Notes under the pieces: generated by a model
What the model was told of the DNA's origin: nothing
Database searches by the model: none
What the model saw: the letters and a program-made list of their open reading frames with translations, nothing else
Translations under genes and position numbers: made by a program
Part shown: positions 4,842 through 19,776 of the stretch, one piece after another
Layout: each line of letters starts with the position of its first letter
Numbering within the stretch: position 1 is the stretch's first letter
IMG/VR virus record: IMGVR_UViG_3300043449_002688
Coordinates: 90,802-154,801 of that record
DNA length: 64,000 nt
Strand: one strand, 5' to 3'
Source: a virus

Positions 4842-4869
4842 ATGTTTGTACCTAACCAAAGGAGCTTTT

Positions 4870-5106
4870 ATGTTTAAGGCAATGGAAGATCTAATTGAAG
4901 AAGGTAAAACTGTTGATTTGCGCCTTCGCCCTTCTTATCGTCTTGGTTTCCTTAAAGGTGCAACTATGGTTACAAAAATTCAGCTTGAAACTCTTATGGA
5001 GAAAATCCAAAGAGGTGACAGCAAAGAAAGCCTTGAAAGATATGTGACTTCTATTTTGGCTGATTTGGCTAGGACTGAAGAAGCTGTAGAAAAAATGGGT
5101 TCTTAA
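4870..5106 (+). CDS. hypothetical early protein
   Basis: AAGGAG then ATG at 4870 (track start 4846). Confidence 0.65.
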   Translation: MFKAMEDLIEEGKTVDLRLRPSYRLGFLKGATMVTKIQLETLMEKIQRGDSKESLERYVTSILADLARTEEAVEKMGS

Positions 5107-5118
5107 AAAGGAGCATGT

Positions 5119-5316
5119 ATGTCACGTATAAAATGTGCCGTATGCAATAAAAACCCAGTTAAAACTAAAATTTCTAAGCACTGGAAAACAAATAAGATTA
5201 TTAAACTTTACGAAGCTACTTGCAATGGCTCTGATTGCGTTAACCAGTATAACGAAGTTTTAGCCGAGCTTTCTTTTCAAGAAGTATATTTTAGTTCGGA
5301 GTCTAACAATGGATAA
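5119..5316 (+). CDS. small Cys-containing hypothetical protein
   Basis: SD AAGGAG; CxxC and Cx4C. Confidence 0.6.
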   Translation: MSRIKCAVCNKNPVKTKISKHWKTNKIIKLYEATCNGSDCVNQYNEVLAELSFQEVYFSSESNNG

Positions 5317-5557
5317 CTGCCCTAATTGCAAGTCTAGCTGGATTGGTGAGCCAATTCCTGAAGTCCTTCGTCAGCATTACGGCGATGAAACTCATTGGCG
5401 CAGAGAAATAAACATTGACGGTGGCTACATGGGCATTTATGATGGAATAGTCGCAGTTATATGCCCAGACTGCAAAGAAGAATTTCCCCGAAACGATAGT
5501 TCTTGGGCGTTAGAAATGTTTAAGAAGTACCAAGAGGCTGTAAATGAGAGTAAATAA
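5309..5557 (+). CDS. zinc-ribbon hypothetical protein
   Basis: CPNC...CPDC; overlaps both neighbours. Confidence 0.65.
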   Translation: MDNCPNCKSSWIGEPIPEVLRQHYGDETHWRREINIDGGYMGIYDGIVAVICPDCKEEFPRNDSSWALEMFKKYQEAVNESK

Positions 5558-6146
5558 AGAAATAATCTCAAAATTAGGTCCATGTAAAAATAGGTTCGAT
5601 AATTATTTAGAATATTACTCTGACTTTGATGGAACCTTACAAGAATTTATTTTGCTAGATAAAATTACTCATAAAGACAAAATTTGGGTAATTACAAAGC
5701 TTTTTGATGACAAGCAAAAAAGTAAATGGGCTATTAAATGTGCTTTTAGCGTTTTATATATATACGAAAAGAGTTTTCCGTCTGACGATAGACCAAGAAA
5801 AGCTATAGAAGCCGCACAGGAATGCCTAAGTAATCCTGCTGCTCGTGCTGCTGCTTATGCTGCTGCTGATGATGCTGCTCGTGCTGCTGCTTATGCTGCT
5901 CGTGCTGCTGCTTATGCTGCTGCTTATGCTGCTTATGCTGCTGCTTATGCTGCTGATGATGATGTTACTCGTGCTGCTCGTGCTGCTGTTGATGCTGCTC
6001 GTGCTGCTGCTTATGCTGCTGCTGATGATGCTGCTCGTGCTGCTGCTTATGCTGCTGATGATGATGTTACTCGTGCTGCTGCTTATGATACGCAAAAACA
6101 ACTTAATTTAAAGTTTGCTATCGAGGTCTTAAATGAAACGAAGTGA
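5544..6146 (+). CDS. Imm5-like domain protein with Ala-rich repeat
   Basis: CA..VL.IYE...DDRPRKAIEAA followed by AAYAA/AARAA repeats, typical of this phage family. Confidence 0.65.
   Translation: MRVNKEIISKLGPCKNRFDNYLEYYSDFDGTLQEFILLDKITHKDKIWVITKLFDDKQKSKWAIKCAFSVLYIYEKSFPSDDRPRKAIEAAQECLSNPAARAAAYAAADDAARAAAYAARAAAYAAAYAAYAAAYAADDDVTRAARAAVDAARAAAYAAADDAARAAAYAADDDVTRAAAYDTQKQLNLKFAIEVLNETK
5837..6088 (+). repeat. low-complexity GCT-based tandem repeat
   Basis: Shuffled GCT/TAT/GAT/CGT codons, e.g. gctcgtgctgctgcttatgctgct repeated. Confidence 0.9.
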
Positions 6147-6366
6147 AATGATTGACCATATTGTCGCTGAGATGGTAGATGCTGAAGCCAATAGAAAATA
6201 TAGCAACGAAGCAGGCGAAGCTTATTTTAAGCGTAGAGCGGTTAGCTTACTAGATATGATTGAAGGGTTCGGTATGCTGCCTCCAGAGGTTCCGACTCTG
6301 ACTATCAATGGCGTCTCTTTTATAGCTAAAAATATTTGGGAGCCTGAAGATGAAAGCACTAAATGA
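6133..6366 (+). CDS. MKRSE-family paralog 1
   Basis: MKRSEM...GMLPP...WEPEDE. Confidence 0.7.
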   Translation: MKRSEMIDHIVAEMVDAEANRKYSNEAGEAYFKRRAVSLLDMIEGFGMLPPEVPTLTINGVSFIAKNIWEPEDESTK

Positions 6367-6805
6367 AGCATTGAATGAACTATCTTGGCAATTAAAAAAA
6401 ATTTCGCCATCTTTTAGTCAGGAAATTGATAGGTGTTTAACTGATTGGGCAGAAAAGAATTTTGATGTAATGTCTATCACTACGCATTTAAGCCAAGAAA
6501 TGGAGAATAGCGCTGCTGATCCCAGTTCTTTAAAAGCGCATTTATTGCAAAAAGCTCTATACGAGTCTGCAATTCAAATTGGTGCCAAATACGGTTTTGG
6601 GCAAGAAGAAGTAAAAATGCCTTGGAATCATTTAAGTAGGTCTACCGACTATTATGCTACATGGAAAGTAAATCCACATCAATATTCAAAAGAATTGTCT
6701 TTATCATTTGTTGTTTTGAAAAGACATCCTACATCATGGGGTTCTAATGAAAGCACAAGTGATTGGGTTAAAAAAATAGTAGGGGCTAAAAATGAAACGA
6801 AGTGA
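6350..6805 (+). CDS. hypothetical protein
   Basis: 151 aa; start embedded in the WEPEDE junction. Confidence 0.65.
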   Translation: MKALNEALNELSWQLKKISPSFSQEIDRCLTDWAEKNFDVMSITTHLSQEMENSAADPSSLKAHLLQKALYESAIQIGAKYGFGQEEVKMPWNHLSRSTDYYATWKVNPHQYSKELSLSFVVLKRHPTSWGSNESTSDWVKKIVGAKNETK

Positions 6806-7037
6806 AATGATTGAGCATATTGCCGCTGAGATGGTAGATGCTGAAGCCAATAGAAAATATAGCAACGAACCCAAGCAAGATTATTATTTACGTAAAGCTA
6901 CCGGACTATTAGATATGATTCAGGGATTTGGTATGCTGCCTCCAACTGTAGATGGAATTATTGAAGTTGAAAAGACTAATGATGAGGGCCTAGCCTTAAA
7001 GCTTTGGAGTTGGGAGCCTGAAGATGAAACGAAGTGA
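6792..7037 (+). CDS. MKRSE-family paralog 2
   Basis: Near-identical N-terminus to 6133-6366. Confidence 0.7.
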   Translation: MKRSEMIEHIAAEMVDAEANRKYSNEPKQDYYLRKATGLLDMIQGFGMLPPTVDGIIEVEKTNDEGLALKLWSWEPEDETK

Positions 7038-7461
7038 GATGGTTACATATCTTCATAATTTATTAAATACGTTTGAAAATTGCAGTCTAGATCGAGCAGC
7101 AGTAGATGAAATCCTAGAAGGATTAGAGAGCATGGGCATGCAACTAGTTGAGCAGTTAGAAGTAGTCCCTTGGGAGCCTGAAGAAGGCTGGGATATATAC
7201 TTACAAAAACAAGACGAAAAAGCCGAAGCTCGTGACTTCCATATCGCACCTAGACTGAATCCTTATAAAAACACCTATGATTATGAAATGACTACTCCCA
7301 TGATAATAGCTAATAGGTATTTATGGGGAGAATCTATTAAAGATCTTGCTAACGCATATAATGTGCCTCGTGAACGAATTAGGCAAATAATAGCAAAAGA
7401 ACGGCGTAGATATCAAAATTGGAAAAAAAGCCAACAAGGGTCTGAAGATGAAACGAAGTGA
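7024..7461 (+). CDS. MKRSE-family paralog 3 fused to a sigma70 region-4-like HTH
   Basis: C-terminal RYLWGESIKDLANAYNVPRERIRQI matches the sigma-4 helix-turn-helix. Confidence 0.7.
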   Translation: MKRSEMVTYLHNLLNTFENCSLDRAAVDEILEGLESMGMQLVEQLEVVPWEPEEGWDIYLQKQDEKAEARDFHIAPRLNPYKNTYDYEMTTPMIIANRYLWGESIKDLANAYNVPRERIRQIIAKERRRYQNWKKSQQGSEDETK

Positions 7462-7714
7462 AGTAGTAAAACAATTAACCGAACGATTTGAGCAAATGGA
7501 TTTGAATATTACTCCAGGCGTACTGGCAGAAATCGCTATGAGGATTGTTGAAGATGCAGGCATGCAACCTCCAAACATTACACTAAAAGAAATGTTCCCC
7601 GACTCGCCATTGCTTACAGCAGAAAATCATTATTATGGTGTTTGGGAAGAAGAAGATCTAAGCAGCTATCCTTCAATGACTGAAGATATCGACGACGTTC
7701 CTTTAAAAGGATAA
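7448..7714 (+). CDS. MKRSE-family paralog 4
   Basis: MKRSEV...GMQPP...WEEED. Confidence 0.7.
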   Translation: MKRSEVVKQLTERFEQMDLNITPGVLAEIAMRIVEDAGMQPPNITLKEMFPDSPLLTAENHYYGVWEEEDLSSYPSMTEDIDDVPLKG

Positions 7715-7716
7715 TT

Positions 7717-7935
7717 ATGAACAAACGTGAGCAAATTTTACTTGATTATGTTATTCAAAAAAGCTACACTGATCCAGAAGCTCAAGAAGTTTTAAATCAA
7801 TATGATGCTGAAAGAACAGGGCAAGAGTACAGCTCTGTAGCTTTAGTTAATTCCCTTATTAGAGATGGAAACATCAAGCTTGCTGAGCGAATTTTACAGT
7901 GTATGACTGGCGGAGATTATAAATATGAAACTTAA
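7717..7935 (+). CDS. hypothetical protein
   Basis: 72 aa in the tightly packed + strand operon. Confidence 0.6.
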   Translation: MNKREQILLDYVIQKSYTDPEAQEVLNQYDAERTGQEYSSVALVNSLIRDGNIKLAERILQCMTGGDYKYET

Positions 7936-8137
7936 AGAGCAATTAGAACTACAAAAAGACATCGAAGTTCCTTGGCATGTTTTTAGGTTTTTTGATGGTA
8001 ATACAAAAAAGATTGTTTTGGCTGGAGATCAAGCAAGTTTATCTTCAGAAGGCGATTTTGGCAGCTTACAAGAGCTACAAAAAGCCGTACAATGGTATGT
8101 AGAGCAACTGGGCGGTAAAGTTAAGTGGGATAAATAA
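7925..8137 (+). CDS. hypothetical protein
   Basis: 70 aa, GGAG upstream. Confidence 0.6.
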   Translation: MKLKEQLELQKDIEVPWHVFRFFDGNTKKIVLAGDQASLSSEGDFGSLQELQKAVQWYVEQLGGKVKWDK

Positions 8138-8200
8138 TCCAAGCTAAACATCTAATATTAATAGTTTATTCTATATTGGAATATGGAATAAGAACAGAGT

Positions 8201-8461
8201 GTGGTAATTAATATGGAAAGCGTACTTTGGCTATTTACAGGTACATTCTATTCTGGAGTATTGTTAACTGTAGGCTTGTTTGTATATAAGATTATTAAAA
8301 ATCAACCTTCTAAAAAGCTGTTTATTAATTTCTTAAAAATCTTAGGGATTGGGTTTGTTGCTTCTATGTTTCCTTGGCTTTTGTTTGGATTACTAGGGTT
8401 CCCTTCTGTTTTAGTAGCGAGTATAGCTGTTACCTTTGTCTTTCAAAAAGAACTTTCGTGA
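8201..8461 (+). CDS. small membrane protein
   Basis: About three hydrophobic segments. Confidence 0.55.
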   Translation: MVINMESVLWLFTGTFYSGVLLTVGLFVYKIIKNQPSKKLFINFLKILGIGFVASMFPWLLFGLLGFPSVLVASIAVTFVFQKELS

Positions 8462-8591
8462 GGCTTTATGGAGCTTTTAATTGTTAGCCCTGTAATTCTT
8501 TTCTGTACTTTAGTTTTAGCAGTTGGCTTTTTAAAGTTAACTGAACATTTCGATTCCGAAGATTAATCTTTTAAAAATTAAAGGCAATAAA

Positions 8592-8816
8592 ATGAAAACA
8601 AAGTTTTATGCAAAAGATACAAGTAACGGCGATTTTTTTCCAGAACCTAAATTAATCCAAGCCGATATGGGCATTCTTATTGAGTATGGAAACAAAAAAT
8701 TTACTATTCAAGAAGATAATTTCGGCAGGCTCATTCTAACGTCTGTCGGTTCAGGATTAGGTTTGGTTTTAACGCCCAGAAGCTGGAATTCTGTTGTTAT
8801 AAGTTCTGAAGATTAA
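8592..8816 (+). CDS. hypothetical protein
   Basis: 74 aa, AAGG upstream. Confidence 0.6.
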   Translation: MKTKFYAKDTSNGDFFPEPKLIQADMGILIEYGNKKFTIQEDNFGRLILTSVGSGLGLVLTPRSWNSVVISSED

Positions 8817-8901
8817 ATCTCAAAACAATACATATATAAAAAATACTTGATTATTTTTATAGTCATGGTATTCTGTATTTGTAAGTAGGTAATTAACTGA
8901 A
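8816..8901 (+). repeat. 86-bp direct repeat copy 1 containing an early promoter
   Basis: Identical to 9316-9401 except one base; contains TTGATT-16-TATTCT. Confidence 0.9.
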
Positions 8902-8931
8902 ACTAGACATTTTTATTTGATGTGGTGATTA

Positions 8932-9105
8932 GTGGAGATTTATTTTGGCATCGGTTTTGGGGTTTGGCTGGGTTTATTCTCTTACCGACTTAAAAGAGAC
9001 AAGTTTAAGTATATTATGTACCATGTAACCCCTATAAGTTTTTTGAGGGGTTTTATAGGTGCGGTTTTATTTTGGCCCATTTGCATATTTTTAATCCAGG
9101 AGTGA
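8932..9105 (+). CDS. two-TM membrane peptide (57 aa)
   Basis: Hand-translated from GTG: MEIYFGIGFGVWLGLF...FIGAVLFWPICIFLIQE*; GTGA overlap with the next ORF. Confidence 0.45.
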   Translation: MEIYFGIGFGVWLGLFSYRLKRDKFKYIMYHVTPISFLRGFIGAVLFWPICIFLIQE

Positions 9106-9350
9106 TTAGAAAAAATATCCAGCGTCCTCCCTGTCCGTTTAATGATTTTGGTAAAAATCGTAATCCAGAAAATGATATGATCGAAAGTTCTGGTGGTCTT
9201 TGTGGCGTTAAGCCTGGACTTAAAAGCATTGGTTGGGATTTTGAAAATCATATTGACAATTCAAAATTTGAAGTTACTTGCCCTAAATGCAAGAAGAAGC
9301 TCGAAAAGTTAGTTGAATCTCAAAACAATACATATATAAAAAATACTTGA
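9102..9350 (+). CDS. Cys-rich hypothetical protein
   Basis: LCG...VTCPKC; GTG at 9102 is in frame with track ORF 9072. Confidence 0.5.
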   Translation: MIRKNIQRPPCPFNDFGKNRNPENDMIESSGGLCGVKPGLKSIGWDFENHIDNSKFEVTCPKCKKKLEKLVESQNNTYIKNT

Positions 9351-9401
9351 TTATTTTTATAGTCATGGTATTCTGTATTTGTAAGCAGGTAATTAACTGA
9401 A
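9316..9401 (+). repeat. 86-bp direct repeat copy 2 containing an early promoter
   Basis: Exactly 500 bp downstream of copy 1. Confidence 0.9.
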
Positions 9402-9411
9402 GGAGGACCCA

Positions 9412-9570
9412 ATGATCAAAGTAACTTATAAAAGCAATTATAAAGTTAAAGAAGGTCGTAAGTGGGTCGAAAAAACTTCTCAGTGGGATGAAGTGATTAA
9501 AACTGAAGCCGACGCTAGATTGCGAGCTTTGGCCCTTAACTGGCAAATCGTTAAGGTGGAGTCTGTATGA
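9412..9570 (+). CDS. small early protein (52 aa)
   Basis: Perfect AAGGAGG SD right after the promoter; MIKVTYKSNY...KVESV*; ATGA-coupled. Confidence 0.65.
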   Translation: MIKVTYKSNYKVKEGRKWVEKTSQWDEVIKTEADARLRALALNWQIVKVESV

Positions 9571-9833
9571 AAAATTTAGCACAAATGATGCAAAGAGTTT
9601 TTCAAATTAAAAAGGGCGATATTTTAACTAAAGGCGACCTTTATATAATGAATCAAGCAACTGATCAAATTTTGTCCGAATATGATACCTTAAATCCTGA
9701 TTCTTTTGATGATTCACAAAAATTAGACGAATATGATTATTTTTTGGATTATTGTGAAGAAAGTCTAACTGATAGCCTAAAAAAGGCTAGGATTAGAGAG
9801 AGTGGTTTAAAGCTCGTAGTCAATAATTCTTAA
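9567..9833 (+). CDS. hypothetical protein
   Basis: 88 aa, coupled to the upstream ORF. Confidence 0.6.
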   Translation: MKNLAQMMQRVFQIKKGDILTKGDLYIMNQATDQILSEYDTLNPDSFDDSQKLDEYDYFLDYCEESLTDSLKKARIRESGLKLVVNNS

Positions 9834-9862
9834 AAAACAATTTTGTCGAATTTGGATATCAT

Positions 9863-10018
9863 ATGAAAAAACAAATTGATAAAAAAGTCAGAGCAAAAGC
9901 TTTAAAGGATTTGACTAAAAACGGCAAAAACCGTTATATGATTGCGCAATTAGACCGTCTCATGTCAGACAAAGAGACCCTAGAAATCCTCAACGCTTTA
10001 TTTGCTGCGACAAATTAA
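9863..10018 (+). CDS. small hypothetical protein (51 aa)
   Basis: Hand-translated MKKQIDKKVRAK...AATN*. Confidence 0.45.
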   Translation: MKKQIDKKVRAKALKDLTKNGKNRYMIAQLDRLMSDKETLEILNALFAATN

Positions 10019-10020
10019 TA

Positions 10021-10049
10021 TTGCTTTTTTAATTAAACTTTGACAGAAT
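10021..10049 (+). promoter_or_regulatory. sigma70-type promoter for the tRNA
   Basis: TTGCTT-17-CAGAAT with TG extension, 6 nt before the tRNA. Confidence 0.5.
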
Positions 10050-10055
10050 ACACAT

Positions 10056-10132
10056 GGACACTTAGCTTAGCTGGTGAAAGCATCCCGCTCATAACGGGAG
10101 GATCGTAGGTTCGAGTCCTACAGTGTCCACCA
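10056..10132 (+). tRNA. tRNA with CAT anticodon (probably tRNA-Ile2, otherwise elongator Met)
   Basis: Cloverleaf: GGACACT/AGTGTCC acceptor, TCCCG-CTCATAA-CGGGA anticodon arm, GTAGG-TTCGAGT-CCTAC T arm, encoded CCA. Confidence 0.95.
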
Positions 10133-10398
10133 TTTTTCGCTGGAGTTTTTATGCTCTTACTTATGACTTATTTCGTTGCTATCCATACTGCCGCAGTCGT
10201 AATTGATTTGTGTAACAAATCGTTAAATTAAAGAGTTATAGCGCCTCAATTTGAGACATGGAGTTTAAGGATCTTTGCTTTTAAGCCAAAATATAGATCG
10301 AAACTCTAGTTTTAGGTCTATTTTTAAAGAAAATGGAGCGGTCTCTTTAGAAAAGAGCTAATATATAGACTAGTAACAAATGATATTTAGGAGATATT

Positions 10399-10614
10399 AT
10401 GGCAATGGGTATATTAAAATATAAACTGCCGGAAGAAAAATCAGAATTTGAATTGGCTCAAGCTGCCGGAGGTCTTTATTCAGATATTTATACCTTTGAA
10501 CAGTGGCTTCGTTCAGTATGGAAATATTCAGACAAAAAAGAGCTTACAGTTCAAGAAATTCGTGATAAATTTTACGAAGTAATGCAAACGTATCAAAACA
10601 TAGAAGAAGATTAA
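10399..10614 (+). CDS. conserved phage hypothetical protein
   Basis: AGGAG SD; LKYKLPEE..EF..A motif. Confidence 0.65.
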   Translation: MAMGILKYKLPEEKSEFELAQAAGGLYSDIYTFEQWLRSVWKYSDKKELTVQEIRDKFYEVMQTYQNIEED

Positions 10615-10686
10615 AAGGTGTTGATATGAACGGTGTATTGGTGTTATTATTAGTAGTGTTAATCCTCATCTCTCTATCTGACTAAG

Positions 10687-10920
10687 GTGGTAAGTATGAA
10701 GCAAGGTTGGGTTCTTATTAATTGGACTGGCAATCGTTGGGTTACTAATGGGCCAAAAGTTTATGAGGACTTAAACGAAGCTAAATACGAAGCTAAGCAA
10801 GCTGAATTGCCGTACACAAGAACTCTACATATTACTTGGTTAGATTGCCTGGAAGAATGGCCTGAACCTGACTTTTTCCAAAAACTAGAAAAAGAAAGAT
10901 TAATCAATGAAAAAGAATAA
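10687..10920 (+). CDS. hypothetical protein
   Basis: 77 aa ORF. Confidence 0.55.
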   Translation: MVSMKQGWVLINWTGNRWVTNGPKVYEDLNEAKYEAKQAELPYTRTLHITWLDCLEEWPEPDFFQKLEKERLINEKE

Positions 10921-11080
10921 TGTTTATTACATGTCTGCTTTTATTAGCCAAACTCGTGAAATGGCAGTAAAACATTCCTCTCTTTTGAAAAACATAAAAG
11001 ACTATGCTGAGACTGGCGAAAACAAATATTTGGATAAATCTAAAATGCGCAAACCTAATGGGTCTTTACCTAAGCGCTAA
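10907..11080 (+). CDS. small hypothetical protein (57 aa)
   Basis: Hand-translated MKKNNVYY...LPKR*; overlaps the upstream stop. Confidence 0.45.
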   Translation: MKKNNVYYMSAFISQTREMAVKHSSLLKNIKDYAETGENKYLDKSKMRKPNGSLPKR

Positions 11081-11201
11081 TATTTATCTTACGCAAATGC
11101 CGTAAGATTTTACGCAATCTTAATAAAACAATTTAATTTACAATCCCTTGCAGATGGATTTGCGAGGGTTGTACCCTTTTGATACGTTCATAAAAATATA
11201 T

Positions 11202-11230
11202 TTGCAAAAGTTACACAGCAATCATATACT
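11202..11230 (+). promoter_or_regulatory. sigma70-type promoter (TTGCAA-17-TATACT)
   Basis: Upstream of AGGAGG and the PIN-like gene. Confidence 0.55.
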
Positions 11231-11258
11231 GATTATGCACTAACCAAAAGGAGGAATT

Positions 11259-11540
11259 ATGCGTATCGCTCTAGACAATAATTGCCCAAGCTGTGTAATT
11301 AAAAAACTAGAAAAAAATGGCCACACTGTAGTTTTATATGCTAGACATGAAATGGATGAAGATTGGGTAAGTACAGCTCTTTCTCTTGGCGCAGATCTAT
11401 TTATATCAAATGATCTAGATATCGTTAATATGCTTGATCGTTGGAATGAATCAGCAGCTTTCATTGAGTTGCCTCAACGAGTATCTGGCTACAGACTTTC
11501 AGAATGGATTGTCAAACAAGTAAAACTTTTGGCTGCATAA
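11259..11540 (+). CDS. DUF5615 / Mut7-C-type PIN-like domain protein
   Basis: MRIALDNNC...L...GH.V...DEDW..A......IS.D.D acidic pattern. Confidence 0.7.
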   Translation: MRIALDNNCPSCVIKKLEKNGHTVVLYARHEMDEDWVSTALSLGADLFISNDLDIVNMLDRWNESAAFIELPQRVSGYRLSEWIVKQVKLLAA

Positions 11541-11635
11541 TAATTGTCTTGTTTTGATATAATTGTAAAAATATAATTGTTTTTGAAATAAAAGTATAAT
11601 AATATAAATAAAGAACACAAACAGAGGAGTTTAGA

Positions 11636-12586
11636 ATGGCACATGAAGTAGAAAATATGATGTACGTTGGTTCACGCCCTTGGCATGGTCTTGGCCGCGC
11701 TTTCGAGGTTCCACCTACGTTAGAAGAGGCTATCATTGCTGCTGGACTCAACTGGAATGTCGGTCTGAGAAAGTTACAGACTGTAGACACTATGGAAGCT
11801 GTTTCAGCTATGGCGACTTACCGAGAGACCGATAACCGTATCCTTGGGGTAGTAGGCCCTAATTATCGCCCGCTGCAGAACTCAGAAGCTTTTGATTTCT
11901 TCCGTCCGTTTATTGATGCTAACGAAGCTTCAATTGAGACTGCAGGCTCTTTGCGTGATGGTCAACGAGTGTTTGTTTTAGCTAAAATTAACCGTGACCC
12001 AATGGTTGTAAAAGGTAATGACGTAGTAGACAAATACGTTCTACTTTCTAACTCACATGATGGCACTTTGGCCGTTAGAGTTGGGTTTACGCCAATCCGA
12101 GTAGTTTGCAATAATACTTTGACTTTGGCTCATAACGACAAAGCATCAAGACTACTTCGCGTCAAGCATAGTGGTAATTTGGTACAAAACTTGGAAAAAA
12201 TCCAAGAAGTAATGAACTTGGCTAACGCTGAGTTTGAAGCTACTGCAGAACAGTACAGAGTTTTGGCTTCTAAGCAAATTAGCTCGCAAGATCTGGAAAA
12301 GTACGTTAAAATCGTATTTGCCCAGAAAAAGACTCTGGAAGAAAAGTCTGTAGAAGAAATTAATTCACGAGTTATTAGCAGCGTACTTCCTTTGTTTGAG
12401 CAAGGTCGTGGAAACGACATGCAAGAGATTAAAGGCACTTACTGGGCTGCGTACAATGCAGTAAATGAATACCTTCAATATGAGCGTGGAGAAACAGAGC
12501 AAAGCCGATTTGACAGCTTGTGGTTTGGTTCTTCTGCACAGTTGAACAAAAAAGCTTTGGAAACAGCTTTGATAATGGCTGCTTAA
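11636..12586 (+). CDS. DUF932 family phage/plasmid protein (TIGR03299-like)
   Basis: MAHEVE...PWHGLG, YRPLQN, ETAGSL, LSNSHDG, TPIRVVCNNTL, GTYWAAYNAVNEY. Confidence 0.9.
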   Translation: MAHEVENMMYVGSRPWHGLGRAFEVPPTLEEAIIAAGLNWNVGLRKLQTVDTMEAVSAMATYRETDNRILGVVGPNYRPLQNSEAFDFFRPFIDANEASIETAGSLRDGQRVFVLAKINRDPMVVKGNDVVDKYVLLSNSHDGTLAVRVGFTPIRVVCNNTLTLAHNDKASRLLRVKHSGNLVQNLEKIQEVMNLANAEFEATAEQYRVLASKQISSQDLEKYVKIVFAQKKTLEEKSVEEINSRVISSVLPLFEQGRGNDMQEIKGTYWAAYNAVNEYLQYERGETEQSRFDSLWFGSSAQLNKKALETALIMAA

Positions 12587-12658
12587 TTAATTGATTTTTA
12601 AAATGTGATGGATTACACTAAACCCATGGATGGGTTTTTAATTAATGAGGTAAAAAAA

Positions 12659-12850
12659 ATGAGCGATAAGGTTCCAGATTTTAATCCAGAAGATGCAGTT
12701 GAACTAAGCGAACAGGAATCGGCTGCATTTGGAAATTTAGTTAAACAAATGGATGAAGCTATGAAAGCTGGCGATGATGAGCTTTTGGTATCATTGAGAG
12801 GTCAAATGGACGAGTTCTTCAAGCAAGTTTCTGAAAGCAGAACAAAGTAA
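12659..12850 (+). CDS. hypothetical helical protein
   Basis: GAGG SD before ATG 12659 (track start 12605); TTGATT-17-TACACT promoter at 12591-12619. Confidence 0.6.
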   Translation: MSDKVPDFNPEDAVELSEQESAAFGNLVKQMDEAMKAGDDELLVSLRGQMDEFFKQVSESRTK

Positions 12851-12896
12851 TATGGCTAAACGCGCCTTTGAAGTTTCTTCTGTTTTCGGAGTTTTC

Positions 12897-13091
12897 ATGG
12901 GGAAAGTTATTTCATTGGATGAGTTTAAACGCCTCAAGGAACGAGGCGAATCTATTCAGAAGCTACTAAAAATAGCCATGGAAGCGGCGGAGAACGGTAA
13001 CGAAGAGCTACTTTTGGCCATGGAAGATGAGCTAGAAGAATTATTAGAATTAGAATTAGAATTAAATTTAATTAAAGACAAGGATGAATAA
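12897..13091 (+). CDS. hypothetical helical protein, distant paralog of 12659-12850
   Basis: GGAG before ATG 12897; shares an A...G..ELL....E pattern. Confidence 0.55.
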   Translation: MGKVISLDEFKRLKERGESIQKLLKIAMEAAENGNEELLLAMEDELEELLELELELNLIKDKDE

Positions 13092-13196
13092 CAGGGAGCA
13101 AGGAAGCTCCCGTTGTAAGCATTTAGCAGGACGCTATTTTGAGCAGGACGCTCAGTGCTTATGGTTCCCCAGCTCCGTAAAAAGAGCTGGGTTTTT
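13078..13196 (+). ncRNA. CsrB/RsmZ-like RNA element with GGA-loop hairpins
   Basis: ACAAGGATG, GGGAGC-AAGGAA-GCTCCC, TAGC-AGGAC-GCTA and TGAGC-AGGAC-GCTCA, followed by an intrinsic terminator. Confidence 0.6.
13168..13196 (+). terminator. Rho-independent terminator
   Basis: CCCAGCTC/GAGCTGGG stem plus TTTTT at the convergence with the late module. Confidence 0.85.
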
Positions 13197-13200
13197 ATTT

Positions 13201-16200
13201 TTAATTTGAAATTAAACTAACTGTAATATCTGCTGTAGGGTCAACAATGTAAGCTTTTTCAAATGCAGCAACTGGTATTAGATCATTTGCAGAAGAGTAG
13301 GACGGAGAAGTTACAGCTACTGCTACAACGCCAGGAATATAGTTGGCTGCAGATACCATTTCGCTGATAGAAACAGATTGACCTACTCCAAGAGCATTAA
13401 CATAACCAGCAATTGCAGCTTTTACGTTTTCTCTAATTTCAGAGAAAGGTACTCCAGTTTTAACTCGAACTGTAAATGCAGCAGTAATTCTACGAACAAT
13501 TGCTTGTTTAATATCAATGTCAGTACCTGCTGCCCTAACACCAGGATAAGTTAATGGATCTGATGAATCGCCATAAATAATACGGTTAAGCTCTTTAACA
13601 AGACCTTGATAATAAATATAAGAATCTATACCAAAATTAAGCGATTGATTAAATCCAAGCTTTCCAGATACAGACAATGTTGCACCTAAAGAAGCACTGA
13701 CTTTATCCATCAGTTCTGGGGTATTAAAAAGAACTGTAGCTTGAGAAGCATTGGTCGGTCCAACTGCAAAGACTTTTTTGTATAAAGTTATCGGATCTTT
13801 TTCTTCTACATTTACATTTAAATATTCTCCGCCCAATGCAGCAGAAATGCTTTGGTTGAAAGTAGGAGATATGTAAATTCTACTAGGAGTTGGGAATGGA
13901 GTGTTATTATCTGCAGGTCCCAATACTGTATATCTGCCATAGTTTTGTGGACTCAAAATGTTTGTAGCAATATTTAAAACATCTCCTGGCATAACTGAAT
14001 CGTATGAATAAAAATTGATATTGTTTACGTCGCCAACTTGAGCAATTTCTTCTACGCCATTGTCGTTTTTAATCCAGAAGGCATTTCCAAACACTCGAAC
14101 AACTTGGAAAGTTCCTAGATTGCCTTTGTTGAATTCGCGCTTTTCCCAATAAGTGCTATTTGCAGCATCAGGAAGATTGCCAATATTTCCGTTAACGAGA
14201 GAAGCATAGATAGTTCCAGCATAGAAAACTCTTTGATCAACTGCATAAGTAGTAGAATTAGACCAATCAGTTGTAGCGTTTTCTTCTGAAATTCTTACCC
14301 AATCACCTTCTTTTACTCCGCCAGCTAGCAAACCAAGAGAACTTCCAGCGATTGGAATATAAGCCATGAAGTCGCCATGTTTTTCTATCTTAAACTTAAC
14401 AGTAGTATTTAGAGTAATAGTGCGTTTAGTCTGGAAAGTACCAGGACCAGTGATATCGACCCATCCTCCGGCGTTATTTAAAGAAAGGGTTGTTGTGGTG
14501 TCAAACCCAAGAGATTTGTTTTGTCGAACTGTATTTTTTATAGTTACCCATTGATTAGGCAACAAACCTTTTTTAGTTTCAAAAGGTACTTGTATTGCAC
14601 CAAGTTTATTGTTAACTTTTCGGCCTGAGCCTGAAGTAGCGATTTCAACTCTATTAGAAGTTCCACCAGCAATTTGAATGCTGCCAGTTGTACCAAATGT
14701 TTTAGTAGAAATCTGTAATTGCTTTCCGTATTTTGAAAGATTAATATTAGCTACATTTGAAAGACCAGTAACTGATAGTTTATTCCAAAACCTAACAAGT
14801 TGTTCAGATGTAACTGCTACAAGTCTAATTTCTTCGCCAATTTCAGGCTCTGTTACCCAAGATTTTTTAACCTGGAACATTGGGTCATATTGAGCGGCAG
14901 CAAGGTTAGTAGTTTTGATCGAGTTTTCGCCATCGCTCATCATTAAATATTTAGTTGAACCGATTACAGTTCCAACAATAGTATTCGTAGAACTGCTCGT
15001 AGCAATTATTGAAGATTGAGTCTCTATAATGTTTTTAGCTAAAGCAGGGTCATAATAAGAATCTATAACCACATAGCTGCCACTATAAGATTGATAAGAA
15101 GGTGTGGCTATTGTTATCTTAATATCTGCTCCTTTTGGAAGCAGAGTATTTGTTGCAAATCTTACAAATCTAGAGCTAGATCTAATGTAGAGATTTGTAA
15201 CCGTAGTGCTTATGTATCCGCTAGAAAGTAATATATCTTCAGTAGAAAGATCTATTATATCTTCTGTCGTTCCATCAGGGCCGATTTCTGCCAAAGCTCT
15301 ATTTGGTAAATAAGTTGCTACATAATCTACTATATCTTGAGCTGTAGTGTTACATGAACCAAACTGTAGGTTTTCGTCAGCTTGCCCGCCTAAACATCTA
15401 GCTAGATAACCTTGATCTACACATTCACCGTAAGTACCTCCAGTAGCCGAAGCATTTCCACCAACTGGGTAAGTAAATGTAAACATGCTTGAGTTGTAAG
15501 TATTTACTGTAAAAGTTCCATTCAAAGATTCAACAGTAGTTTGCCAGTAAGCAGTTGCAGAACTTGGTATGTTGTTTGTGTTGCTTGCCTGTAATGAGAT
15601 ATAAGTTTGGCCTAAATATTCAACTAAATCATTAACTCCATAAGTTGTAGCACTACTCCAATCCGCCAAATCACTATTACTAATACGAACAATATCTCCA
15701 ACTAATAGACCTACAGTTGAAGCTGTATTAACTGTAACAGTATTACCTACTTTAGTAATAGAAGTAATATTTGTTAGCGCAGAAGGTGCTTTAGATTGGA
15801 AGTCTACTCGTCCAGTGTTAATGCTTCCAGCAGTAGATCCAGGTTTAATGTACTGAAATTGATTTGTTCCCAAAACTCTATAAACTGCAGTTAATCCATT
15901 ATAAGGAGTGCCTGCATTTGAGACTAAAATAACATTTCCTTCGCTTAAATTATGGGCCGTAGAAGTTGTAATAGTTACAAGATTGTTGGAATGAACACCG
16001 TAAGTAATGTTACTTCCAATTCCTAAACTAGGAGCTTTAACTGTGAACTTAGTTGAGTTTACTATACTGTCAATAGCATAAGTTCCATTAATTGGGCTAT
16101 TAATTCCATCAGAAAGTACAGTGCCTGCTAAGCCAATTCTTTGTCCTTTTATAGCATTGTGAGCAGCAGTTGTTTCTACAGTAATAACCCCATTTTTATT

Positions 16201-19200
16201 TTCTAAGCTAGTAAAGTATAATTTATCAGAAACATAATCGCCAGTTGGAACTTCAACAGTAAATGAAGTTGGGGTAACATTTGTAACTTTACCTGTAATA
16301 TTTTTATTAGCAGCTAAGAAATCCGTTGTTCCGATATTAACGACATCGCCTACATGAACTTCTGCTGCGCCAACGTCAAATCCAGTGAATGTACCTACTT
16401 CATAAGTAAAGGTAAGAATATCTTTTGCTCCGCTAGTAGTTTTTTCTATAGTAAAGGCTGTAGTATTATCCCAATTTGGAAGTCTTGGCTCTACGATTGG
16501 TAATGTAATGGCTAAATCAATTACTTCTGAAGCAGTAAGAGTATGAGTAAGTCCGGTTACATCGTTTGATTTAGGGTAAATAAAGCCTACTCGCATTTTA
16601 TTGCCAGAAGGACCAAAGTCTGCTGCCTTCATCTTCAAGCTAAAAGTATCTCCTGTAAGATTTACATTTGCTTGTCTAAATACTTTAAAGTTATCAAAAA
16701 CAAATCCATTAAAAGAAGATGGACTGTTTAAGGGTAAGTTTGATTCTAAGTCTGTTGCTGAAAAATCTTGTTGCGTAGGAGCTGAATTACCTGATACTAA
16801 AAGTTTACGTGAAACTGGTAAAGTATAAGTTTTAACTTGAGCGTCTTGATCGGCAACAACTAAAGAAGAATCTTCAGAATCAAATTTATAAGAAGACCTT
16901 AAGAAATACCTGTCAGAACTTTGTATATATGATCTTTTAGCAAAATTAGGTAAATTACTGTTATATGTACTAGGAACCAAATTTGGATTTAAATATGAAG
17001 GTGGTAAATAATTCAAATAATTATTAGCATCGTTATATTCAACTGCAAAAATCCTTTCATTTTTATTGCTTTCAGGAATAATAGTTTCAGTTGTAGTATT
17101 ATTTTTTGGAACTATTTCCAAGAAGTCTGCTTCATCTCCACCTAAATTTTTGTAATTAGAAACAGTAATAGTTGTTCCGTCAATTCCAGTCCCAAGCGTA
17201 CCATATGTAAATGACGGAAACCCAACTTCAGAATCTGTTTTTGCCACAAATCCGTAATGTGATGGGATGTTTTTTCTAGCCACATTTAATGGTAAGTTCA
17301 ATGCTTGTCCGCCTTGATCCATTGCTGCTATAAAAATTTCACCATTTGAATCTAAACTTATTGTAGAAAATCTAATTTTAGAGCCAATGATTTCTGCATC
17401 TACTCCAGATAGCTGTATTTTTGTTTCATTAATAAAATCAACTAATGACCCTGGAGTAAAGTTAAGCTCTTGCATAGGGGCAGAAGATCTAATGATAGCT
17501 ATTCGGTTTGTATTAACAGTAACAGAGCCAGAAATTGGGCGAGAAACTGCACCGTCATCAACAATAATTTGACCTAATGAAGCTTCTTCTATTCTCCAGA
17601 ATCCTTGAAAATTTTTTAAAACAGTTGGATCATCTGGATTAGCCCAAACTAATAACCAATCATTTTTTTCTGCTAGATCAAATCCTTCAGGAGAACCGCC
17701 CAATGATTCAGAATTAATAGTAAGTTTTGTTCCTGATTTACTAAAAGTAAGAGTAGAATTTATATTTAATTTATTTGGAATATTTACACTATCGCCATCC
17801 ATCAAAAACCATATTCTACCATAAGAAGAAATACCATTTAAAGGTGCGCTAGTTACATTTCCTCTTGCGTATTGAGACCCAGCAGTAATTTTGTCTTTTG
17901 GTTCTAATGGAATAGTAAATCCGATTTGCCCAGTTTGTTTGTTAAGAGTAAAATCTGATTGTTGGCCTGTTGAGCTTAAATCTGCTTCAGCATTAAAGAT
18001 TTGAGGTAAGAGTGTTCCGCCTGTAAAAAGTAAAGAAGCTTCACTGCTAACTCCTCTGGCAGAAGTAAATGCCAATCTCTCACCTACTATTGTTGTAATA
18101 ACCCCAGGCATTTTAGCGTTAAATACTTTAGCCCAAGTTTCCAGAGAAGTTGTTGATGAAACAGAAGCTTGTGGATCAATTTTTTGAAAATCTACGTTAT
18201 TAAATGTAACTGTAATTTCTTCTGTATTATCTACAATATAAGAAAGAGTTACACCGGCTGAAATACCTACTAACCAATCTGATTTTAAATTAGTATAAAT
18301 TCTAGCAACTTTGCCATCTTGGAATAAAGGTATGTCATTTTTATAAAGTCTGATTGTTAAAATTTCTTCTTTTGGAAAATTAAAGATGTCGTTAGCATCT
18401 TCGCCTTGTGTATAATCTACAACTTTAATTGAGTTAACGTCTCTGTCTCTTGGATAAAGTGCTAGGCTAGTTCCACCATTTAATGTAGCAGCGTTAAAGT
18501 TTAGTGAAGTATTTCCATTAATACTGGACATAACTTCAAAACAAGTTGCAGAACTTGGTACTGTAAAGTCTGCAATATTAAAATTATGCACAGTTTGAAC
18601 GCCGTTTATTTCTACTGCTAAAGAAGGTGAGTTTTCTAAATTATAAGGACCTGGAGTATAATTTTGTACAGTAGCTTGAGCGATTGGTTTTTGTCGAAGC
18701 TGAACTTCTATTTCTCCACCTACAGCTTCATCTACTACCGTTTCAAATTTTGAACCAACAAAATTAGGCTCGTATCCAGTTCCGTCATCAAATATTAATG
18801 CTGCTGTAGAATCAGGATATTCAATTACTTTTGCTGAAGCGACTTTTTTTAGCTCATCTTTAGCGATTACTCCAATTGAATAATATTCAATTGCAGAAAT
18901 AATGCCTTTTGCTTTTGCTTGTTCATAGCTTTTAATTCTAGCTCTAATATCGTCATCAGTATCAGCATCTTTACCGTTAATAAATGCATTTTCGTTAAAA
19001 ATAGAAGCAGAGAAAGACATTCCAACAGCTTCTTTAATTGCACCGCGAGGTACATTCCCTGATGTTCCTGGTTGTTCACATTTTACAGGAACATTCGTTA
19101 TGGTAGTTTCTCCATCAATGATTGTAACTTTTGTAGTTGTTTTAAATACAGAAGGACTACCATTAACATCAGGTGCAGTTCTAACAGAAGCTCCTACATT

Positions 19201-19776
19201 AATAATTCTATTTCCGCCTTGAGCTAAAACTACAGCCTCTCCAATATTATGAAATTTAGTAGTAGGAGAAGTTGGGGCAAGGTTAATAGACCAGAAAGCG
19301 CCGCCTGATTCAGGTTGTGCGCTTATGTAATCTAAAGGACCTTCAGAGTTAGCTGTTCCGCGTCCTATGTAAATTTTTCCAGTAGGACTAAAAGTAGATG
19401 CATCAGAAACGTATATAACAGATGAGCCAGCAATTGGAGCTGGTTGACCTGAATAAACTCTAGTGCTTCTTTTTTGAAAAGATGTATCTGTAATAGTTAC
19501 TTGGCCAGTAGCTGCAGTTGCGGCAAAAATTGGCACTTTTTTATCAGAAGCCAATCTTTGTAAAGCTTCACCACTAGCTCGATCTACTGAAAGAGCATCG
19601 ATCATCCCAATCATGTCTGCCGAAGCCTTGAACATATTTTGAGAAATTGCTTCTATAAGCTGAGCAAGAACTGAACTTTGGTTAAGGTCAATATCTTTTC
19701 TAAGTCTCGCAAGAATTCCGTCAATTAAATCGCCTGCAATTTGTTCTTTAGACCGTAGCTGTGGAATTTCAGACAT
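13201..19776 (-). CDS. giant baseplate J / wedge protein with inserted beta-rich and carbohydrate-binding modules
   Basis: Baseplate-J N-terminus (ASGEALQRLA...ATAATGQVT; G..GNV..G.I; G.DADTDDDIRARI) and C-terminus (VRAAG...YVNALGVG...IPGVVAV); two WS..TTY...V.Y.G..Y CBM5/12-like repeats. Confidence 0.8.
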   Translation of the reverse strand: MSEIPQLRSKEQIAGDLIDGILARLRKDIDLNQSSVLAQLIEAISQNMFKASADMIGMIDALSVDRASGEALQRLASDKKVPIFAATAATGQVTITDTSFQKRSTRVYSGQPAPIAGSSVIYVSDASTFSPTGKIYIGRGTANSEGPLDYISAQPESGGAFWSINLAPTSPTTKFHNIGEAVVLAQGGNRIINVGASVRTAPDVNGSPSVFKTTTKVTIIDGETTITNVPVKCEQPGTSGNVPRGAIKEAVGMSFSASIFNENAFINGKDADTDDDIRARIKSYEQAKAKGIISAIEYYSIGVIAKDELKKVASAKVIEYPDSTAALIFDDGTGYEPNFVGSKFETVVDEAVGGEIEVQLRQKPIAQATVQNYTPGPYNLENSPSLAVEINGVQTVHNFNIADFTVPSSATCFEVMSSINGNTSLNFNAATLNGGTSLALYPRDRDVNSIKVVDYTQGEDANDIFNFPKEEILTIRLYKNDIPLFQDGKVARIYTNLKSDWLVGISAGVTLSYIVDNTEEITVTFNNVDFQKIDPQASVSSTTSLETWAKVFNAKMPGVITTIVGERLAFTSARGVSSEASLLFTGGTLLPQIFNAEADLSSTGQQSDFTLNKQTGQIGFTIPLEPKDKITAGSQYARGNVTSAPLNGISSYGRIWFLMDGDSVNIPNKLNINSTLTFSKSGTKLTINSESLGGSPEGFDLAEKNDWLLVWANPDDPTVLKNFQGFWRIEEASLGQIIVDDGAVSRPISGSVTVNTNRIAIIRSSAPMQELNFTPGSLVDFINETKIQLSGVDAEIIGSKIRFSTISLDSNGEIFIAAMDQGGQALNLPLNVARKNIPSHYGFVAKTDSEVGFPSFTYGTLGTGIDGTTITVSNYKNLGGDEADFLEIVPKNNTTTETIIPESNKNERIFAVEYNDANNYLNYLPPSYLNPNLVPSTYNSNLPNFAKRSYIQSSDRYFLRSSYKFDSEDSSLVVADQDAQVKTYTLPVSRKLLVSGNSAPTQQDFSATDLESNLPLNSPSSFNGFVFDNFKVFRQANVNLTGDTFSLKMKAADFGPSGNKMRVGFIYPKSNDVTGLTHTLTASEVIDLAITLPIVEPRLPNWDNTTAFTIEKTTSGAKDILTFTYEVGTFTGFDVGAAEVHVGDVVNIGTTDFLAANKNITGKVTNVTPTSFTVEVPTGDYVSDKLYFTSLENKNGVITVETTAAHNAIKGQRIGLAGTVLSDGINSPINGTYAIDSIVNSTKFTVKAPSLGIGSNITYGVHSNNLVTITTSTAHNLSEGNVILVSNAGTPYNGLTAVYRVLGTNQFQYIKPGSTAGSINTGRVDFQSKAPSALTNITSITKVGNTVTVNTASTVGLLVGDIVRISNSDLADWSSATTYGVNDLVEYLGQTYISLQASNTNNIPSSATAYWQTTVESLNGTFTVNTYNSSMFTFTYPVGGNASATGGTYGECVDQGYLARCLGGQADENLQFGSCNTTAQDIVDYVATYLPNRALAEIGPDGTTEDIIDLSTEDILLSSGYISTTVTNLYIRSSSRFVRFATNTLLPKGADIKITIATPSYQSYSGSYVVIDSYYDPALAKNIIETQSSIIATSSSTNTIVGTVIGSTKYLMMSDGENSIKTTNLAAAQYDPMFQVKKSWVTEPEIGEEIRLVAVTSEQLVRFWNKLSVTGLSNVANINLSKYGKQLQISTKTFGTTGSIQIAGGTSNRVEIATSGSGRKVNNKLGAIQVPFETKKGLLPNQWVTIKNTVRQNKSLGFDTTTTLSLNNAGGWVDITGPGTFQTKRTITLNTTVKFKIEKHGDFMAYIPIAGSSLGLLAGGVKEGDWVRISEENATTDWSNSTTYAVDQRVFYAGTIYASLVNGNIGNLPDAANSTYWEKREFNKGNLGTFQVVRVFGNAFWIKNDNGVEEIAQVGDVNNINFYSYDSVMPGDVLNIATNILSPQNYGRYTVLGPADNNTPFPTPSRIYISPTFNQSISAALGGEYLNVNVEEKDPITLYKKVFAVGPTNASQATVLFNTPELMDKVSASLGATLSVSGKLGFNQSLNFGIDSYIYYQGLVKELNRIIYGDSSDPLTYPGVRAAGTDIDIKQAIVRRITAAFTVRVKTGVPFSEIRENVKAAIAGYVNALGVGQSVSISEMVSAANYIPGVVAVAVTSPSYSSANDLIPVAAFEKAYIVDPTADITVSLISN

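Follow-up and report, generated by a model that had tools for sequence, protein, structure and literature searches.

RESULTS

Genes and RNA features at the end of the small-ORF block

The window, a 64,000-nt stretch, comprises bases 90802 to 154801 of the 154,801-bp IMG/VR record of an uncultured phage with a CheckV completeness of 96% and a G+C content of about 34%. The phage has a contractile tail and a portal protein that shares 52% identity with its counterpart in Myxococcus phage Mx1 and 63 to 67% with those of several uncultured genomes of 140 to 160 kb. Within the window, a plus-strand block of small open reading frames (ORFs) converges on a baseplate gene read from the minus strand, and the element under study, a cluster of hairpins carrying GGA in their loops, occupies the 109-nt gap that separates the two. 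Because the small-ORF block carries sigma-70-like promoters and a tRNA-Met gene, it is presumed to be early. The features, in window coordinates, are as follows.

About 4846 to 13091, plus strand: block of small ORFs with sigma-70-like promoters and a tRNA-Met gene
12852 to 13091, plus strand: last ORF of the plus-strand unit, 79 aa, helical and acidic, stop codon at 13089 to 13091
13078 to 13086, plus strand: candidate single-stranded site ACAAGGATG (RNA core ACAAGGAUG), overlapping the final codons (KDKDE) of the 79-aa ORF
13094 to 13111, plus strand: hairpin 1 (hp1), GGGAGC-AAGGAA-GCTCCC, a 6-bp stem with a hexaloop closed by a C-G pair (CAAGGAAG)
13116 to 13161, plus strand: enclosing helix, UAAGCA (13116 to 13121) paired with UGCUUA (13156 to 13161), around hp2 and hp3
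13124 to 13136, plus strand: hairpin 2 (hp2), TAGC-AGGAC-GCTA, a 4-bp stem with an AGGAC pentaloop
13140 to 13154, plus strand: hairpin 3 (hp3), TGAGC-AGGAC-GCTCA, a 5-bp stem with an AGGAC pentaloop
13168 to 13202, plus strand: intrinsic terminator, CCCAGCTC-8 nt-GAGCTGGG followed by TTTTTATTTTT, with an 8-bp stem (6 G-C pairs), an 8-nt loop, and a U5AU5 tail
13201 to 19776, minus strand: late, convergent baseplate-J-like gene, 2191 aa, 46 to 52% identical in related phages

The element lies 2 nt past the stop codon of the 79-aa ORF, has a G+C content of 50% compared with 34% for the genome, and places three loop GGA sites and one single-stranded site inside 77 nt. Other convergent junctions in this phage span at most 38 nt and contain one hairpin each, whereas this gap contains four hairpins in 109 nt. 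An initial annotation, made from the sequence alone, had described the cluster as a CsrB/RsmZ-like sponge at the 3' end of an early transcript, and direct reading bore out the layout on which that description was built: all four motifs lie exactly where it had placed them, the last two hairpins are indeed enclosed by a TAAGCA/TGCTTA stem, and the terminator that it had claimed is present. The element likewise ends the plus-strand small-ORF block, with the terminator directly after it, and the early timing of that block is our reading of its promoters and tRNA gene.

Searches of 5.8 billion proteins returned no homologue of the 79-aa ORF, nor did IMG/VR, and neither known functions nor homologues were found for the small ORFs near the element. 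A 41-aa ORF at 13084 to 13209 was dismissed: AAGGA abuts its ATG. Nothing in the window reached an Rfam gathering score except the tRNA-Met at 10056, which is also the sole tRNA in the window; ARAGORN and the Rfam tRNA model found no cloverleaf or T-loop at the element, disposing of a tRNA or tRNA-like reading, and the element has no relation to the tRNA-shaped RNAs at 2151 to 2518. Elsewhere in the window, a listing of ribosome-binding regions showed CCTAATCTT repeated 10 to 20 nt before the start codons of many late-type minus-strand genes.

Two small ORFs and further GGA hairpins may form one unit with the element

Upstream of the 79-aa ORF, a listed 81-aa ORF with a GTG start (12605 to 12850) probably begins instead at the ATG at 12660, 9 nt behind a GAGG, and encodes 63 aa. 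The later start leaves a 73-nt gap of 25% G+C after the DUF932 gene. Two hairpins with GGA in their loops lie in this gap, and a third lies inside the 79-aa ORF.

12604 to 12617, plus strand: hairpin UGUGA-UGGA-UUACA, in the gap after the DUF932 gene
12620 to 12637, plus strand: hairpin AAACCCA-UGGA-UGGGUUU with a U tail, reading CAUGGAUG, terminator-like, in the same gap
12930 to 12948, plus strand: hairpin CGCCUC-AAGGAAC-GAGGCG, inside the 79-aa ORF

No promoter-like site was found between 12115 and 13168, and the element has no obvious promoter to itself. The sequence TTGATT-17 nt-TACACT at 12591 to 12618, with TGGAT just before the -10 hexamer, resembles an early promoter that is repeated at 8838 to 8872 and 9338 to 9372 (TTGATT ... 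TGG TATTCT). If this is a promoter, it may drive a separate transcription unit made up of the last two small ORFs and the GGA element, and the hairpin at 12604 to 12617 would be promoter DNA rather than RNA.

The element is a structured RNA module

The 131-nt region is far more stable than shuffled sequences on the plus strand (z = -3.8) and also on the minus strand (z = -5.2), and in a 611-nt context both hp2 and hp3 appear in the minimum free energy (MFE) structure. The arrangement proposed in the initial annotation is not the MFE structure in isolation, where the three-way fold of the 106-nt element (-39.8 kcal/mol) loses to one long irregular hairpin (-44.7 kcal/mol, the MFE) and its class accounts for about 4% of the ensemble. 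The long hairpin prevails because the repeated AGC/GCT cores pair crosswise, and in it the first G of each AGGAC is base paired. Every GGA in a loop keeps its GA unpaired in both folds, the GGA of hp1 has an unpaired probability of 1.0, and the ACAAGGAUG site is mostly unpaired in the ensemble. The enclosing helix can be extended to 13115 to 13123 paired with 13154 to 13162 through two G-U pairs, which is possible on the plus strand only. We conclude that the plus-strand unit ends in a genuine structured RNA module, formed by the element, and that this structure has been under selection.

An 11-nt core, AGCAGGACGCU (direct repeat AGCAGGACGCT), is common to hp2 and hp3 and has no further copy in the genome. 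Beyond this core the flanks of the two hairpins differ from one copy to the other yet are complementary within each, extending each stem with different letters.

The loops fit the CsrA/RsmE binding grammar and cluster beyond chance

The top-affinity RsmE target described by Duss et al. is an ANGGAX hexaloop seated directly on a stem, and the next class consists of AGGAX pentaloops such as those of RsmZ SL3 and SL4 (PMC4005645). As predicted sites, hp1 falls in the hexaloop class and hp2 and hp3 fall in the pentaloop class. The CsrA SELEX consensus is RUACARGGAUGU, with ACA and GGA invariant, and one CsrA dimer bridges sites 10 to 63 nt apart (PMC7652899). The single-stranded ACAAGGAUG is an exact match to the core of this consensus, ACA and GGA included, and the four GGA motifs are spaced 20, 27, and 17 nt apart, all inside the bridging range.

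To gauge how often such an arrangement would arise, we used a strict grammar in which an ANGGAN or AGGAN loop must be closed, with no gap, by a stem of four or more Watson-Crick pairs. Across 1.02 Mb of loci, sites of this kind occurred at 0.049 per kb per strand, and the element was the sole strict triple within 80 nt. The expectation under independence is about 7.5e-4; counting the directly repeated hp2 and hp3 as a single event leaves two independent loops instead of three and raises the chance to about 1e-2 per genome. Four complete related phages (0.63 Mb) contained no strict pair or triple in noncoding DNA, and the triple is unique across the approximately 1.65 Mb of unselected phage and bacterial DNA made up by the loci and these four relatives. 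Within the 155-kb genome itself, only 2 of 21 strong intergenic hairpins, namely hp1 and hp3, carry GGA in a plus-strand loop, and the density of CA(N)GGA at the element is the genome maximum on either strand (5 per 80 nt; mean, 0.10). The genome maximum on a 600-nt scale is found here as well (10; mean, 0.74). A looser hairpin definition proved too noisy, and under it the 600-nt enrichment is unexceptional; the loose-grammar clusters seen in relatives were Gly-rich coding repeats. By the strict measure, the clustering of GGA loops at this locus exceeds chance.

Likeness to known Csr/Rsm RNAs lies in the loops and the order of parts

Rfam offered no support for a sponge of a known family: no Csr/Rsm model reached its threshold, the best, rsmX, giving 16.4 bits (gathering score, 56) and an E value of 1.2 even in a search of only 601 nt. 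A genome-wide search with the rsmX family was too insensitive to add to this, as even the local match at the element was not recovered. The rsmX model (RF02144) nevertheless aligns over its full length (1 to 114 of 114), covering hp1, the enclosing helix with its two inner hairpins, and the terminator, while skipping the second hairpin of RsmX. RsmX, a Gac/Rsm decoy small RNA of Pseudomonas of about 115 nt, is similar in length to the phage element, and its parts follow in the same order: at the 5' end a hairpin with an A(A)GGAA loop, then a helix that encloses two GGA hairpins, and finally an intrinsic terminator. The phage element differs in lacking the second RsmX hairpin, in having no stem sequences in common with RsmX, and in being phage borne and placed after a coding region in a genome of 34% G+C, without a GacA box upstream (no similar match to TGTAAG-N6-CTTACA was found near the element). 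The sponge claim finds support in its loops, which fit the binding grammar, and in its rsmX-like order of parts, but not in Rfam membership. Given its score and its lack of a promoter of its own, we do not class the element as a homologue of RsmX; should it be functional, it would be a phage-borne variant that arose by convergence.

Other RNAs of the family resemble it in part. RsmZ/PrrB (RF00166) presents the same loop words in the same order, CAAGGAAG, CAGGACG, and CAGGACG, each on a short stem. The phage element shows no homology to RsmZ beyond these loops, has fewer sites, lacks the RsmZ 5' hairpin and single-stranded GGA tail, and goes undetected by the Rfam RsmZ model. CsrB and CsrC (RF00018 and relatives) share with it the plan of repeated short AGGA(N)-loop hairpins followed by a terminator, but CsrB, transcribed from a BarA/UvrY-dependent promoter of its own, packs about 18 to 22 sites into some 360 nt, against four sites here. 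The flaA mRNA of Campylobacter jejuni (PMC4894983) offers a different parallel, that of a coding transcript with CsrA sites that can antagonize the protein, and would be relevant if the host CsrA is of the FliW type, as in the Bdellovibrionota MAGs; there, a host gene carries the sites in its 5' leader and ribosome-binding site, whereas the candidate sites here follow the stop codon of a phage gene. Finally, csrA/rsm genes carried by phages and plasmids, with csrA found in 30 of 2517 phage genomes, are mobile elements that touch the host Csr/Rsm network, as is proposed here (PMC7366521). Such genes add the protein, whereas the phage element would remove it.

Used as a query, the loop pattern retrieved genuine RsmZ genes and a CsrB-like array. 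A 22-base pattern built from the three loops and their closing pairs matched at least 120 stretches of metagenomic sequence, and among the matches listed, RsmZ was represented by six copies, five with stems of at least 4 bp at both AGGAC motifs and one with a 3-bp stem at one of them; the one other match with stems of at least 4 bp at both motifs was a CsrB-like array, and the remainder was coding noise. Two of the retrieved RsmZ copies scored 135 and 131 bits with RF00166, and the CsrB-like array scored 60.6 bits with RF00018. The element shares the loop language of proven sponges, although this retrieval is not independent functional evidence. A model built from the phage sequence alone scored one RsmZ copy at 19 bits, a check that is circular.

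The element has no relatives in the collections searched

A covariance model of the element found no match in 17 related phage records, phage Mx1 yielding two hits only, both with E values above 1.5, and produced only terminator-type noise in 151 Bdellovibrionota genomes. A DNA pattern of two AGCAGGACGCT copies matched only unrelated high-GC coding repeats, and a looser loop pattern run against viral contigs returned a T7-like helicase coding region, one RsmZ-bearing contig, and chance matches. Approaches through neighboring genes were no more productive: IMG/VR contains no relative of the baseplate protein's C-terminal 700 aa, and DUF932 neighbors, tried as a route to homologues, are not syntenic. 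The element is a one-off, without relatives in any phage or collection searched.

The DNA behind the conserved baseplate gene differs in every relative examined. It holds a tRNA-Met gene in one (G005; L126:181-259), a same-strand gene of 741 aa in another, and high-GC coding DNA in two, and in the three relatives that carry a DUF932 gene, about 50 to 90 kb separate it from the baseplate gene. Within this phage clade the early region has undergone heavy rearrangement. Members with 63 to 67% portal and 46 to 52% baseplate identity range from genomes of about 34% G+C overall (G000, G005, and G007) to ones with high-GC stretches (G004 and G006), which suggests that the clade spans hosts of very different base composition; Mx1 is the sole isolate found.

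Clues to the host

Upstream of phage start codons, GGAG and AGGA are enriched about 7- to 9-fold, and the host therefore uses Shine-Dalgarno (SD)-dependent initiation. This argues against hosts such as Bacteroidota, which largely lack SD-dependent initiation. The host of the closest isolate is Myxococcus, through phage Mx1. Phage ThyA is 64 to 70% identical to proteins across many phyla, and metagenome-assembled genomes (MAGs) of Bdellovibrionales are among its best matches; GMP reductase was discarded as a host marker on finding that it belongs to a viral clade, and the phage portal protein was not found in 401 Bdellovibrionota genomes. Bdellovibrionota is a weakly indicated candidate host phylum. 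CsrA is present in 46 of 61 sampled Bdellovibrionota genomes and in all five of the MAGs among the best ThyA matches, csrA adjoins fliW in at least one MAG (G021), and the CsrA of B. bacteriovorus is functional (PMC13443453). The phage itself encodes neither CsrA nor FliW, and neither csrA nor fliW turned up in 13 related phage records or in Mx1. The initial annotation had taken the sponge to imply a csrA-positive host, and such a host is a prediction of the decoy hypothesis, not a result.

DISCUSSION

The reading that we favor, with a probability of about 40%, is that the element works like the RsmX and RsmZ decoys through putative binding of CsrA. Under this proposal, the last 120 nt or so of the plus-strand unit would fold, present four sites of the CsrA/RsmA type (one single-stranded ACAAGGAUG, one AAGGAA hexaloop, and two AGGAC pentaloops), and end in a strong intrinsic terminator. 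Early in infection the RNA would be produced in large amounts as part of an mRNA whose 3' end it forms, possibly trimmed to a stable fragment, and each copy could hold about two CsrA dimers, each dimer bridging neighboring sites. Titration of CsrA would then relieve its control of translation in the host, and perhaps of phage translation, presumably to the benefit of the phage. More tentatively, we suggest that this is a virus-encoded decoy of the Csr/Rsm type and the first of its kind, convergent in origin rather than captured from a host, which would be carried as the 3' end of an early mRNA and would switch off CsrA in a host that may lie outside the Gammaproteobacteria and have FliW as its only other antagonist.

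Several points count against a decoy. The Rfam scores stay below threshold, comparisons with other phages lend no support, hp2 and hp3 are copies of one repeat, the long hairpin wins when the element is folded by itself, and hp1 has an everyday alternative role as a minus-strand terminator. Four sites are few compared with CsrB, and the weakly indicated host phylum has FliW adjoining csrA. In Serratia, CRISPR-Cas expression goes up when RsmA activity is lost (PMC8450108), an effect of no help to a phage. Small RNA antagonists of CsrA are documented essentially only in Gammaproteobacteria (PMC7652899). The element is a readily testable lead rather than a finding.

A quite possible alternative is that this is an ordinary 3' end module between convergent units, in which GGA came to lie in the loops by chance and a local duplication of 17 nt doubled those loops. 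Its parts could then each have a routine role: hp1 may end the minus-strand baseplate mRNA, the hairpin at 13168 to 13202 may end the plus-strand unit, and the middle helix, acting for instance to block exonucleases or as a processing hairpin of the RNase III type, may stabilize 3' ends or insulate the two units. The two outer hairpins score accordingly, hp1 as a terminator for the baseplate mRNA when read on the minus strand, where a U-rich tract follows it, and the main hairpin as a terminator on the plus strand, having no U tail on the minus strand. Such a module would also sit well with the better folding of the minus strand relative to shuffles, the single long hairpin that is the MFE structure of the isolated element, the 11-nt repeat common to hp2 and hp3, the lack of conservation in any relative, and Rfam scores at noise level. 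It leaves unexplained why one hairpin suffices at the other convergent junctions of the phage, and why three loops and a flanking single-stranded site should match the CsrA grammar exactly at the genome maximum of CA(N)GGA density and in the sole strict triple in more than 1.6 Mb. The flanks that extend the stems of hp2 and hp3 also count against it, as they differ between the repeat copies while being complementary within each.

CsrA could instead act in cis, although we consider this improbable. Host CsrA would bind putative sites at the 3' end together with the hairpins at 12604 to 12637 and 12930 to 12948, and would control the stability, termination, or translation of a small two-ORF mRNA, coupling its expression to host physiology instead of titrating CsrA. 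GGA-loop hairpins do occur in the leader and inside an ORF of the two-ORF unit, the 600-nt unit as a whole shows the maximal CA(N)GGA density, the sites at the 3' end number only four, and CsrA is known to alter mRNA decay and termination (PMC7652899). However, no GGA overlaps the GAGG ribosome-binding site at 12647, the enrichment over 600 nt is the one that becomes unexceptional under the looser hairpin definition, and the densest and best sites lie past the stop codon, where translational control is impossible.

Least probable of all is another ligand for the repeated AGCAGGACGCU hairpins, either a phage RNA-binding protein that recognizes C-AGGAC-G pentaloops, in the manner of coat proteins or N, or a DNA-binding protein on two 11-bp direct repeats 17 bp apart. 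In its favor are the exact repeat unique in the genome, the neighboring small ORFs without known function or homologues, and a structure equally possible on both strands. Against it are the lack of a nameable candidate protein, an hp1 and single-stranded site that share just the GGA core with the repeats and so fit CsrA better than a sequence-specific coat-like protein, and the odd location of an operator of two half-sites between convergent genes.

Carbon flow, motility, biofilm formation, and, in some species, CRISPR-Cas expression are under the control of CsrA/RsmA. A full-text literature search, itself incomplete in coverage, found phage csrA genes (PMC7366521) and phage noncoding RNAs, but no description of an RNA encoded by a phage and titrating CsrA. 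Should the decoy reading be correct and CsrA be bound, protein-sponge RNAs would join the toolkit of phage takeover, and a handful of short hairpins would be seen to suffice for such a decoy to emerge de novo. A cluster of A(N)GGAN loops followed by a terminator would also provide a simple grammar for searching other viral genomes.

Additional observations from the pattern searches

The T7-like match obtained in viral contigs comes from a primase/helicase-type gene like that of T7, in which 48 nt of coding sequence (..KEEKKGYWDRTLG.GRIF..) are conserved across about 12 viral contigs of marine podoviruses; hairpins are absent from it, and it is a chance coding match. In IMGVR_UViG_3300016652_000397 (L376; 21,473 bp), positions 1630 to 1675 on the minus strand have almost the same sequence as the genuine RsmZ genes on L257 and L314, and the sequence is probably host DNA flanking a prophage or part of a misclassified contig. 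The CsrB-like array retrieved by the loop pattern lies on contig Ga0209305_1000001 (L290; 442,718 bp; local G+C, 39%), at 230 to 569 on the minus strand, where its RF00018 score of 60.6 bits falls short of the Rfam threshold of 71 and its E value is 6e-15. It contains at least five tandem 26-nt units, each a CUUC-AGGAC-GAAG hairpin followed by single-stranded CAAGGGAC, the 4-bp hairpins being shaped like hp2, and it is probably an unannotated Csr small RNA of a low-GC bacterium.
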